Sequence record: KP682377.1
Length of the DNA: 62,708 bases
Reading direction: 5' to 3' (one strand)
From: Escherichia phage PA16
In this document: one piece after another, positions 57,001-60,000 of the stretch
How the letters are laid out: each line of letters starts with the position of its first letter
Position numbering within the stretch: position 1 is the stretch's first letter
Made by a program: the position numbers

Positions 57001-60000
57001 TTGTCACGCCAGCAGGCGGCGTCTCTTGCCAAAAACATGACGGTGAACTTTAACCGTCGTGGTGAGCAGGGGGCGCTGATGAATTCGCTGTACATGTTCG
57101 CCAACGCCAGCATTCAGGGAACGGCAAATCTGGTGAGAACGCTCGGACATCTTAATGGTGAGGGACCTTTACTGGAGCGCCTTCGCTGGAAGAATCTGAA
57201 TGTTCCGCAGAAAATCGCGCTTGCCGCTGTGGGAGCAGGTTATCTGCTTGGCTCGCTTAACCGCAGCGTGGCGGGTGAGGATGATGACGGGGTTAACTGG
57301 TATGACAAGGTGCCGTCTCATGTGAAAGAGCGTAACCTCGTCATTATGAAATCGGTGTTCGGGGGCAAGGCCGGAGAGTACTGGAGTATTCCTCTGCCTT
57401 ACGGGTACAACGTTTTCTTCCTGCTCGGGCATACTGCTGAAGGTGTGGCGGCGGGTGACCTGACGGCGTCCCGTGCTGCCGGTAATGTTGTTGGTGGTGT
57501 GCTTGGTGCATTCAGCCCGATTGGCAGTGAGACGTCGGAAACACTGTCCGGGGCATTGCTGAAAAATGCAGCGCCGACCATTCTGCGTCCGTTTGCGAAC
57601 CTTGCCATGAATGAAAACTTCATGGGGGCGCAGATTTACCAGGAGAACATGCCGTTTGGTACACCAAAACCTGACAGCCAGCTGGGAAGACGTTCAACGC
57701 CAGAAGCGTACAAGGCGTTTGCATCCTGGCTGAATGCGTTCTCAGGTGGCAGCCAGTACCGTCCCGGCGCGGTGGATATCACACCGGAATCGCTGAAATT
57801 CTGGATTGACTATATCTCCGGAGGGACAGGGCGCTTCATTTCCAAAACCACGGATGCGGCGGTGAAATCGCTGAATGGTATTGATATACCGGAACAGCAG
57901 GTGCCCTTCCTGGGGAAAATTTCGGGGGAGGTGATGCCGTATGCAGACCAGCAGAAGATGTACGACCGGATGACAGAGATTGCGCAGTATCACGCAGAGC
58001 TGAAGAGTCTGACCGGTGCAGAAAGAACGGCGTTCATTGACGAGAACAACGGAAAATTGTCGATGAACGGGCTTATGCAGGATACCCGGAAGAGACTGAA
58101 GGATTTGCGTAAACAGCGTGATGCCATTTACGCCGACAGTACTCTCAGTCTGGCGCAACAGTCGGCGATGGTGAAATCGGTAGAGCGGGATATGAAAATT
58201 GCCGTGGATCGGTTTAACCGCGAGTACAACAAAAAAGTGGGAGTGGATTAACAGAAATGGCCCCGTACGGAAGTGCGGGGCTGATTAAGAAATAAACACT
58301 CATTGACCTGTAATAACCGGAGCTATTAACATATAGTCAGAAGAGCATTTCATGTGATACAGAGAGCCGATTTATGTTTAATGAAGAAAAAGTTGCGCAA
58401 ATGGCAGCGTATTTGCTGAAAAAGCATGGCGGATCTATGCGTTTCATTAAGCTGAAGCAGCAACGGTAATGGCGAATAGCATTTATGAGCAAAATAATCT
58501 TGATATGTTATTAGGCGATCTGATGTAACCGGGATGATGTTCACCCCTTATCGCCGGGGAACAATACCGGCAATCAGAATTGCGGATGGAACTATTCAGG
58601 CCCACGATGATATCGATGAGGAGTTTTTTCAGCCAGTATTGGATGGCTTTCTTATATCCAAATATACGCCATTTGACATCCTCCACGCCCTGAAGGACGG
58701 GGTTTTACAGCGCACCGGATAAGATTCGGTGTTTTGTTGAAAAATACTGTGATAACAAACAGAAAACCCGTCAGTAAGACGGGCTTAGCAAGCTGGGACG
58801 GTTACTTTAATAATTTCAGTGCCTTTACATCCACTTCAACACTGCTCAGGTCTTTATCAATTTCACCCTCAATTCTTACTTTGTCTTTCGGAGAAACATT
58901 CTGACCGGCCCATATGCTGTCATCGATATCCGTGACAATTGTCCCGCTATTGTCACGAAACTCATAACGTTCATCACCCACTTTTTTAACGATGCTCCCT
59001 TCAAGGATAACCCATGCATCATCCTTCAGTTCTTTTGCCTGCGCTACTGTTGAACGCTCTGCTTCAGGCCCTTGGAAACCGCCCTGCTGTGCAAAAGCGC
59101 CAAAAGACACACCAGAAATAAGTGCTGCAATCAATACCTTTTTCATTCATAGTCCTCTTTCAGAGATGAACATTCAAACAGCATTTTCAGTATGGTAAAG
59201 CGCGGGTGCGTTGAGGATGCCTGACACATCAGAGGTGGCGGGAGATTACTCCCCCGCTTGGTCTCTTACTTCTCAGATTCGTAGTCTACGAAGACAGCGA
59301 CCTCCGTCTGACCGGTTCGGATTCGCACCTCGCAGAGGTCTTTCCTCGTTACCAGTGCCGTCACTATGACGGTTAAACAGATGACGATCAGGGCGATTAA
59401 CATCGCCTTTTGCTGCTTCATAGCCTGCTTCTCCTTGCCTTTCGGCACGTAAGAGGCTAACCTACATGTGTTCAGCATGGATTGAGCCTCAGATTAATGT
59501 TAAGCGTCTTGCCGGACGCGTAATGTTAACTGGGGCTTTTCTCTATCTGCCGTTGGTGTTCATGCCCGAGGCAGATAGCCTCAAGCACCCGCAGCAATTC
59601 TACTTAACTCTCCTTTTCCCGCAAACCGTTTTTATCTCCAGCGACAAATCGAATACACAACCAGCACCACCGCCATTACTGTTCCTACATTTGCGAATGC
59701 TTCAGGCCAGGTCATTGATTCACCTTCTGCTCAATATTTTTAAGGTCATTTTCCGCATACAGTATTGCAGTTCTTGCTGCCCGCAACCGTGCTTTGGTGT
59801 TCTTTTCTTCACGCTCGAGGCTGGCAACAGATTCTCGGAGCTGATCGTGTCTGTTATGAAGCTGTCTAATCTCTCTCACCACAGCCTCACCATCGTTCGC
59901 ACACCGCAGAACATACTGAAAAGGGTCCACAACACATCCGCACTGCAAGCACAGGATAACGTGATCCTGTTCATGAACCTCAATGGCCCGATGCTTACAG

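Follow-up and report, generated by a model that had tools for sequence, protein, structure and literature searches.

Escherichia phage PA16 (sequence record KP682377.1) carries, near the right end of its genome, a gene for a small protein of the BOF family, the family of YgiW and YdeI. The 62,708 nt analysed here (the window) are drawn as a prophage map that ends at 62708. The gene lies on the minus strand about 3.5 kb from that end, where a first reading made from the sequence alone (the sequence-only reading) had placed it. It encodes 114 amino acids (aa; 58802..59146, stop codon included) and was identified from the list of open reading frames (ORFs) and from hidden Markov model (HMM) matches. 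Directly upstream, in the same orientation, lies the toxin-antitoxin locus hokW/sokW. The arrangement of these two loci, and the way in which the BOF gene is likely to be transcribed, are the main subject of this analysis.

Around the gene, positions 58300-59700 show 100% identity with Escherichia phage PA4 (KP682372, 62,708 bp), whose numbering is the same. They are equally identical in 933W, at an offset of 806, and in numerous further phages that encode Shiga toxin (Stx) 2a. The same region is identical in the BP-933W/Sp5 prophages of EDL933 and Sakai. By these matches, the window is a 933W-type Stx2a phage. The BOF gene corresponds to L0136/ST933Wp74 of 933W, to ECs1244 of Sakai and to Z1498 of EDL933 (WP_000756595 in EDL933). 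The Z1498 assignment rests on the exact sequence, which leads to the UniRef representative A0A4P8BAV1, the accession given for Z1498 in PMC12962677; the equivalence of ECs1242 and Z1495 anchors the gene numbering behind it. The gene is already known, and is annotated as YgiW/YdeI-like both in RefSeq and in the 933W record, where a note on L0136 reads 'similar to hypothetical YgiW and YdeI proteins of Escherichia coli'. The YgiW-like annotation of L0136 is presumably long-standing. No published literature was found on ECs1244, or on ygiW together with 933W. Searches for L0136 returned unrelated matches only, and searches for ygiW with bacteriophage or lysogen returned nothing relevant.

Family membership, the first claim of the sequence-only reading, is borne out by the HMM comparison that had been proposed as its check. 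The protein matches Pfam BOF (PF04076; E 5e-33, 113.7 bits, cut-off 25.8), the NCBIfam model NF033674 'NirD/YgiW/YdeI family' (136.4 bits, cut-off 35) and, marginally, TIGR00156 (110.8 bits, cut-off 108.15). It fails the YdeI equivalog model NF007471 (63.7 bits versus a cut-off of 179). Its sole solved sequence homologue is E. coli YgiW (PDB 1nnx, E 3e-29). An AlphaFold2 (AF2) model built from 46 homologues has a mean predicted local distance difference test (pLDDT) score of 83.6, with values above 90 in the core from residue 30 and low values for residues 1-29. When this model is used in a Foldseek search, 1nnx is the top match (E 4e-11, TMt 0.91, 53% identity), followed by generic OB folds. 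The protein is therefore predicted to be a five-stranded OB-fold beta-barrel, the fold that had been expected. An Rfam match to the sR2 snoRNA inside the coding sequence (CDS) is noise (20.9 bits versus 42, E 0.26).

The hydropathy profile and an A-x-A motif indicate a Sec signal peptide, MKKVLIAALISGVSFGAFA, encoded by codons 1-19 (59090..59146, minus strand). In the N-terminus, MKKVLIAALISGVSFGAFA followed by QQ, a basic n-region and a hydrophobic core precede the A-x-A tripeptide AFA, after which signal peptidase I is predicted to cut. Cleavage before QQGGF would yield a mature protein of 95 aa with a pI of 4.6 and a net charge of about -6. The signal peptide of the sequence-only reading is also supported by the SignalP 'SPI' call reported for the identical protein Z1498/A0A4P8BAV1 (PMC12962677). 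The product is thus predicted to be a small, exported periplasmic protein.

Upstream of the BOF gene, the mokW/hokW ORF (70 aa, 59266..59478, minus strand) is a Pfam HOK_GEF match (E 1e-22) and is annotated in 933W. The sequence-only reading had called this neighbour 'hokD-like'. A hok-family gene does adjoin the BOF gene, but the label is loose for a gene that already bears the name hokW. The coordinates of the sokW antisense RNA (59470..59540, plus strand) are those of NC_000924 58664..58734 shifted by +806, and the Rfam sok model matches 59416..59590 (113.5 bits, gathering score 59). The hokW 3' untranslated region (UTR; 59203..59262, minus strand) comprises a stem-loop (GCGGGGGAG/CTCCCGC) directly after the stop codon and then an fbi-like element, CCTCAACGCACCCGC, which is complementary, as read from the sequence, to the hokW mRNA 5' end GCGGGTGCTTGAGG (~59577-59590). 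The hok-type toxin ORF, the sok RNA and the fbi/tac complementarity are therefore all present.

A leader of about 53 nt (59147..59199, minus strand) connects the hok fbi element to the BOF start codon and has neither an intrinsic terminator nor a consensus sigma-70 promoter. A putative Shine-Dalgarno sequence, AGAGGA (59153..59158, minus strand), lies 6 nt upstream of the ATG, and the AAGAGGAC block that holds it is kept in all four diverged cassettes. A small hairpin that would sequester this sequence is no better than shuffled controls (z = -0.88) and was disregarded. After the BOF gene comes an intrinsic terminator, AAGCCCGTC-TTACT-GACGGGTTT with a T-run (58754..58786, minus strand), which is the sole terminator of the hok-BOF unit. 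Its hairpin (58786..58764) has 9 bp with 5 GC pairs before the T-run (-18.4 kcal/mol, z = -3.2). The gene does have a terminator of its own, as claimed. The interval originally assigned to it, 58724-59146, covers the CDS and this terminator, but its first ~20 bases take in the T-tail of a plus-strand, terminator-like hairpin (58712..58732) that belongs to a convergent 62-aa ORF (58534..58722). The two convergent hairpins are 32 bp apart and mark the junction between the late, plus-strand block and the minus-strand block.

The hok/sok-BOF cassette

Comparison by blastn with the prophages of TW14359 and O145 RM9872 delimits a hok/sok-BOF cassette of 976 bp (58755..59730, minus strand). The block is 97.3% identical between the 933W-type position and the nin region of other lambdoid prophages, and the end of the post-BOF terminator coincides with its left edge. 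No discussion of this architecture was found in the searchable literature.

Among phage records, the BOF gene occurs only in 933W/Sakai-type Stx phages and always with at least 99% aa identity (44 records). It is carried by 550 of 5426 complete E. coli genomes, 101 at an identity of at least 99% and 450 with a 97.7% allele. This second allele resides in the nin region, flanked by a DUF551 gene on one side and DUF968-RusA-Q on the other, and an identical hok gene immediately precedes it. In IMG/VR contigs, hok lies 119 nt upstream of BOF in all 45 loci that have enough upstream sequence to be assessed. Downstream, 35 of these loci continue into DUF968-RusA, and 10 are convergent with a gene for a 2806-aa protein, as in the window. 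The partnership with hok extends to alleles of ~80% identity, which occur in nin regions and also at a chromosomal site flanked by cytochrome c peroxidase/cytochrome b562 genes and apbC-metG, where no phage genes are visible. The cassette is thus known from three kinds of location: the far end of the minus-strand early-left block of 933W-type phages, the nin region of other lambdoid prophages, and a non-prophage chromosomal site.

Most parts of the cassette have diverged by comparable amounts across lineages. Identity is 86-88% in the hok 5' UTR, 88-89% in the hok 3' UTR, 66-79% in the BOF leader and 85-87% in the BOF CDS; the hok CDS is tighter, at 97-99%. These values imply that hok and BOF have long been passed on together. 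The ratio of nonsynonymous to synonymous substitution rates (dN/dS) for BOF is 0.04, 0.23 and 0.19 in comparisons with three diverged alleles, where dS reaches 0.52; such values indicate purifying selection on the protein. The ORF, the signal peptide and the Shine-Dalgarno sequence are intact in all alleles.

Phage morons, as described by Hendrix and colleagues, are present or absent between collinear genes, are atypical in base composition, and have a promoter and a terminator of their own. The BOF gene shows presence and absence between collinear flanks, atypical GC content and its own terminator. The short-tailed Shigella phage 75/02 Stx is without the segment equivalent to 58456-59629 between the same flanks, and retains the same large gene and the minus-strand Ea/antirepressor block. 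In many other relatives, homology ends ~30 bp past the stop codon of the large gene. The GC content of the BOF unit is 0.435 (0.374 at third codon positions, GC3) versus 0.499 for the window. The absence from 75/02 Stx, the loss of homology in relatives and the low GC content point to prophage cargo, and this status, which had been proposed at the outset, is well supported by sequence comparison; the cassette's second home in the nin region agrees with it.

Probable transcription from hokW and proposed function

Canonical hok/sok loci (R1 parB, hokA-E of K-12) have the same components as Sp5 hokW: mok/hok, a sok antisense RNA and tac/fbi complementarity. Unlike the locus described here, they end in a terminator immediately after fbi, whereas in the window a second, unrelated cistron is placed between fbi and the terminator. 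Loci that have hok without BOF (mEp460, P1-like phages, PPompW) are homologous to the window only from 59194/59204 upward, and there a canonical hairpin and T-run follow directly after fbi (AACCCGCTTCGGCGGGTTTTTG in mEp460, AAAAAGCTCCCGAAGGAGCTTT in a P1-like phage). No such post-fbi terminator was found by sequence comparison and intergenic folding in the window or in three other cassettes (L003, L008 and L010). Terminator scans of the hok-BOF strand in the window and in L010 found the post-BOF terminator, or its equivalent, and no other. With the post-fbi terminator missing and the only terminator located after BOF, the BOF gene is most likely the 3' cistron of the hokW mRNA. The sequence-only reading had assigned the gene its own terminator. 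That terminator does belong to it, but rather than an independent combination of promoter, gene and terminator it looks like a part of the hokW transcription unit.

The following scheme is proposed. The terminator that normally follows fbi would have been replaced by the BOF leader and gene, such that the weak constitutive hok promoter drives a transcript in which BOF is the 3' cistron, with a strong Shine-Dalgarno sequence of its own for translation. Between fbi and the terminator, the hok mRNA, which is stable and translationally silent, would then hold a second cistron that can be translated, and its product, a periplasmic OB-fold protein, would be made in the repressed lysogen. During lytic growth, the gene may also be read by N-antiterminated early transcription. 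In either phage context, the cassette points in the direction of early transcription. In the window, excision and circularisation of the prophage would place the minus-strand genes from the antirepressor to BOF downstream of int; in the nin-region prophages, the cassette is part of the pR/nin operon. At the left end of the prophage map are int (29-1339), N (8877-9149) and cI (10901-11596), all on the minus strand; attR is at the far right of the window according to the 933W annotation.

Both the hokW mRNA and the sokW RNA are present in uninduced MG1655-Sp5 (Takada et al., PMC8621323). If BOF is on the hokW mRNA, its product should therefore be made in the lysogen. Mitomycin C does not raise the level of hokW mRNA, and HokW protein appears only on induction (PMC8621323). 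Z1498 has been identified by liquid chromatography-tandem mass spectrometry (LC-MS/MS) in culture supernatants of EDL933, at lower levels in a type II secretion mutant (PMC12962677). There is thus evidence that the gene is expressed, a point that the sequence-only reading had named as a check for the lysogen. However, Stx2B and 933W virion proteins were also present in the same supernatants (PMC12962677), such that this detection cannot separate lysogenic from induced cells.

The function of the protein can be approached through its characterised relatives. YgiW and Vibrio cholerae SipA (VCA0732) cross-complement for tolerance to H2O2 and Cd; SipA, a periplasmic protein, binds both OmpA and polymyxin B, and the porin partners are OmpD for YdeI and OmpF for YgiW (PMC6370654). 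Plasmid-borne relatives are annotated as nickel-resistance components. SipA, a periplasmic BOF protein with the best mechanistic data, serves as the working model. It differs in that its gene is chromosomal and under two-component induction, and its sequence is more distant. By analogy, the acidic periplasmic OB-fold protein of the phage might act like YgiW, YdeI/OmdA and SipA, binding cationic insults such as antimicrobial peptides and metal cations and/or outer-membrane porins, and might thereby raise the envelope stress tolerance of the lysogen. Of the models at hand, that of an acidic OB-fold protein which captures metals or cationic peptides and attaches to porins fits best; it is held tentatively, at or a little below an even chance. 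The lysogenic-conversion role suggested in the sequence-only reading is reasonable, as an extrapolation from YgiW, YdeI and SipA.

Several points weigh against this combination of hokW read-through and stress tolerance. The search for consensus sigma-70 promoters, which found none on the minus strand between 58250 and 59750, is insensitive and missed the known hok and sok promoters too. A weak or non-sigma-70 promoter is possible in the hok 3' UTR or the leader, where a -10-like hexamer (TACCAT/TATCAT) is conserved in three of four aligned cassettes. The published northern blot (6% polyacrylamide, no sizes; PMC8621323) neither shows nor excludes a transcript of ~0.85 kb, and no transcript mapping of the hokW-ECs1244 junction was found in the literature. 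An extension of 440 nt past fbi would alter the 3' processing that activates hok, yet HokW is made on induction. The Z1498 protein that was detected may derive from a spontaneously induced subpopulation. As for function, identity to characterised family members is only 31-53%, and E. coli already has ygiW and ydeI, to which the phage gene may add little tolerance.

The hexamer also speaks for the alternative in which BOF is an independent moron with a stress-responsive or non-consensus promoter of its own in the hok 3' UTR or leader, regulated apart from hokW. The adjacency of hok would then reflect mere common inheritance of two cargo genes. The hexamer (TACCAT, or TATCAT in L010) is situated ~45 nt upstream of the ATG, and the good Shine-Dalgarno sequence and the terminator suit a self-contained gene. 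Chromosomal BOF genes are, moreover, under two-component control (QseBC for ygiW; VC1638/39 for sipA, PMC6370654). Inspection by eye finds no -35 element at 16-18 nt from the hexamer and no TG extension, however, and only 47-57 nt upstream of the ATG have no counterpart in hok-only loci. The hok terminator is also missing in all three diverged lineages, which means that hok transcription must enter BOF whether or not a second promoter exists. Independent control is rated as unlikely.

Two further explanations concern the function of the protein rather than its promoter. It might serve the phage or the toxin-antitoxin module instead of host stress tolerance, either by acting at the envelope with HokW, as an aid to lysis and release at induction or as a buffer against leaky HokW in lysogens, or by binding an outer-membrane protein from the periplasmic side and thus excluding superinfecting phages. 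The strict and co-diverging linkage to hok over three contexts, the constant co-orientation with early phage transcription, and the porin binding of family members would all fit such roles. When hokW-sokW was replaced by a kanamycin cassette, lysis came later and Sp5 release fell by half (PMC8621323); the insertion could be polar on BOF, a possibility that was not considered in that study. Set against these observations, the pair persists at a chromosomal site without visible phage genes, hok loci function without BOF in many phages and plasmids, and cloned hokW alone is toxic and neutralised by sokW alone (PMC8621323); a role of this kind is distinctly improbable. Finally, BOF might be a neutral hitch-hiker that has no current function and is kept through its physical tie to the addictive hok/sok locus. 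No phenotype has ever been reported, ygiW and ydeI are already present in E. coli, and many related Stx phages manage without the gene with no obvious consequence. The low dN/dS values make neutrality hard to sustain, as do the intact features of every allele, the detectable protein, and the gene's presence in a tenth or so of complete E. coli genomes, and this last explanation appears very improbable.

The reading preferred here, that BOF is exported OB-fold cargo of a hokW/sokW cassette, expressed as the 3' cistron of the hokW mRNA and active in envelope stress tolerance, is on the whole rather probable. The broader proposition, that in 933W/Sp5-type prophages and many others of E. coli the hokW locus is bicistronic and not a canonical monocistronic type I locus, is put at slightly less than an even chance.

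Relatives and neighbouring features

Full-length identity of the phage protein is 49% to K-12 YgiW and 31% to K-12 YdeI. The wider family was surveyed in 80 species-representative genomes, with genomic context read from Pfam matches of selected neighbours only. A neighbour-joining tree on 88 columns, calculated without bootstrap and used for a coarse split only, places all 44 loci that have qseBC divergently upstream in one clade with K-12 YgiW. In the same tree, the window protein and its 98% and ~80% identical relatives form a separate branch. The window gene has no qseBC beside it and is flanked instead by hokW and the convergent 62-aa ORF. It is thus neither a ygiW orthologue nor a YdeI, and on present sequence evidence belongs to a separate, hok-linked clade. 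A recent copy of the host ygiW or ydeI was rejected as its source by the low identities, the lack of a qseBC neighbour and the separate clade.

Compared with YgiW (b3024; 1nnx) and its Salmonella counterpart VisP, the phage protein has the same Pfam BOF and TIGR00156 assignments, a signal peptide, the GGF-G-P motif and an OB-fold core. This core is 53% identical to that of YgiW, and the model superposes on 1nnx with a TM of 0.91. It is 16 residues shorter, without one GGF-containing N-terminal repeat, and its gene is outside the monophyletic qseBC-linked clade to which ygiW belongs. YdeI/OmdA (b1536), which is also named in the 933W note, is a member of the same family with a periplasmic location, as is predicted for the phage protein; here the distance is greater, with 31% identity and a score far below the NF007471 cut-off.

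A single phage-specific BOF clade was also rejected, as the nearest relatives outside the hok-linked branch are heterogeneous, 58-67% identical and found in mixed contexts. BOF genes of 127-130 aa form the last gene, after tail-fibre and tail-fibre-assembly genes, at prophage ends of three species: E. coli (two copies in AP026503; L014-L017), Cronobacter sakazakii (L018-L020) and Salmonella enterica (L021-L023). These copies are 58-64% identical to the phage protein over the mature domain. Both they (E. coli P0047 type, Cronobacter P0020, Salmonella P0030) and NcrY/NirD resemble the window gene as accessory cargo of mobile elements. The prophage-end copies differ in being longer stand-alone genes with an upstream spacer of ~250 nt and no link to hok, and NcrY is only ~35% identical to the phage protein. 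By tblastn, the E. coli tail-fibre markers have no match in the 80 species-representative loci. BOF relatives are present on 1117 plasmid records, including the nickel-resistance protein NcrY. The BOF family is a habitual passenger of mobile elements.

Other members of this mixed group of nearest relatives are chromosomal paralogues, among them Pantoea copies that adjoin BLUF-EAL genes. One BOF paralogue sits between yfeZ/yfeY-like (DUF2919, DUF1131) and ypeA-amiA-like (GNAT, Amidase_3) genes (L088-L105, L109, L116). It constitutes a third chromosomal paralogue that is absent from E. coli K-12 and is found in Atlantibacter, Siccibacter, Franconibacter, Ewingella, Entomohabitans and others. The group also includes a BOF gene of Xenorhabdus thuongxuanensis (L074/L086, 5001-5381), which is directly downstream of genes for a phage Q antiterminator and a primase, which is the slot that stx occupies in Stx phages. 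A 100% identical copy of the window gene is found at 28688-29029 of NZ_CP044141.1, which is filed as a 50-kb E. coli plasmid and may be an excised or mis-binned prophage.

Another hok locus with a gene behind it occurs in phage vB_EcoS-689R5 (ON470583; L025 737-1129), where hok is followed by a gene for a 130-aa lipoprotein-like protein (MKKLVLVAGVMIATVMLGGC...). A degraded hok terminator (AACCCGCTTCGGCG-TTTTTT) lies between the two. This is a second example of cargo directly behind a hok fbi element.

The large gene convergent to the cassette is a single ORF of 2806 aa (49831-58251, plus strand), annotated as an LPD5/LPD38 domain-containing protein, and its 3' end is common to many short-tailed Stx phages. 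The last 50 bp of the 62-aa ORF (58673-58722), just ahead of its terminator-like hairpin, recur at 96% identity in dozens of Stx1a phages (H-19B, Lahn1 and others), at sites that bear no annotation. On the other side of the cassette, a 156-aa ORF with no family assignment (59712-60182, minus strand) separates a DUF551/Ead-Ea22 gene from the hok promoter region. The nin-region cassettes lack this ORF, and there DUF551 abuts hok. Both ~80% cassette lineages have a conserved small ORF for a hydrophobic 34-aa peptide (MSED..LAMEGA.AV...) just upstream of the hok promoter (L008 530-634, L010 3493-3597), which is absent from the window and from the 97.7% allele. Between the antirepressor gene and the right prophage end, the window contains a full-length match to the Rfam family sRNA-Xcc1 (RF02221; 62212-62300, minus strand, 69.1 bits, gathering score 53).

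Implications for Stx2 phages

As an annotated BOF homologue of the best-studied Stx2 phage, the gene in itself changes nothing. It is ordinary and known, and the point of interest is its wiring to hok. The cassette is present in about one in ten complete E. coli genomes, the major lineages of enterohaemorrhagic E. coli (EHEC) included. Should the BOF protein make cells more tolerant of cationic peptides, metals or oxidants, it would be a phage-borne fitness factor that rides with Shiga toxin.

There is one clinical data set in which the cassette probably appears under other names. An Irish case-control genome-wide association study (GWAS) from 2025 associated 'ygiW_2' and a mokC-like 'group_5720' with haemolytic uraemic syndrome (HUS), and the two were mutually dependent in its model, with no explanation offered (PMC11950266). 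In the Sakai annotation, ECs1245, directly beside ECs1244, is called 'regulatory protein MokC for HokC'. To judge from these names and annotations, the GWAS pair is almost certainly the hok-BOF cassette, in which case the dependency reflects physical adjacency. The association with HUS would then be most simply explained by linkage to Stx2a and to other EHEC prophages or lineages, not by two interacting loci.

If BOF is the 3' cistron of hokW, the delayed lysis and halved phage release of the hokW-sokW::km mutant may be partly a polar effect. A bicistronic locus would have broader consequences. To arm Hok, 3' processing would have to proceed through the cargo gene, and both the hokW-sokW deletion phenotypes and the HUS GWAS pair would need to be read again as properties of one cassette. 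In lysogens, the addiction module would serve at the same time for the constitutive expression of envelope cargo, and hok loci more generally, as the lipoprotein-like gene of vB_EcoS-689R5 also suggests, could be landing pads and expression platforms for cargo.

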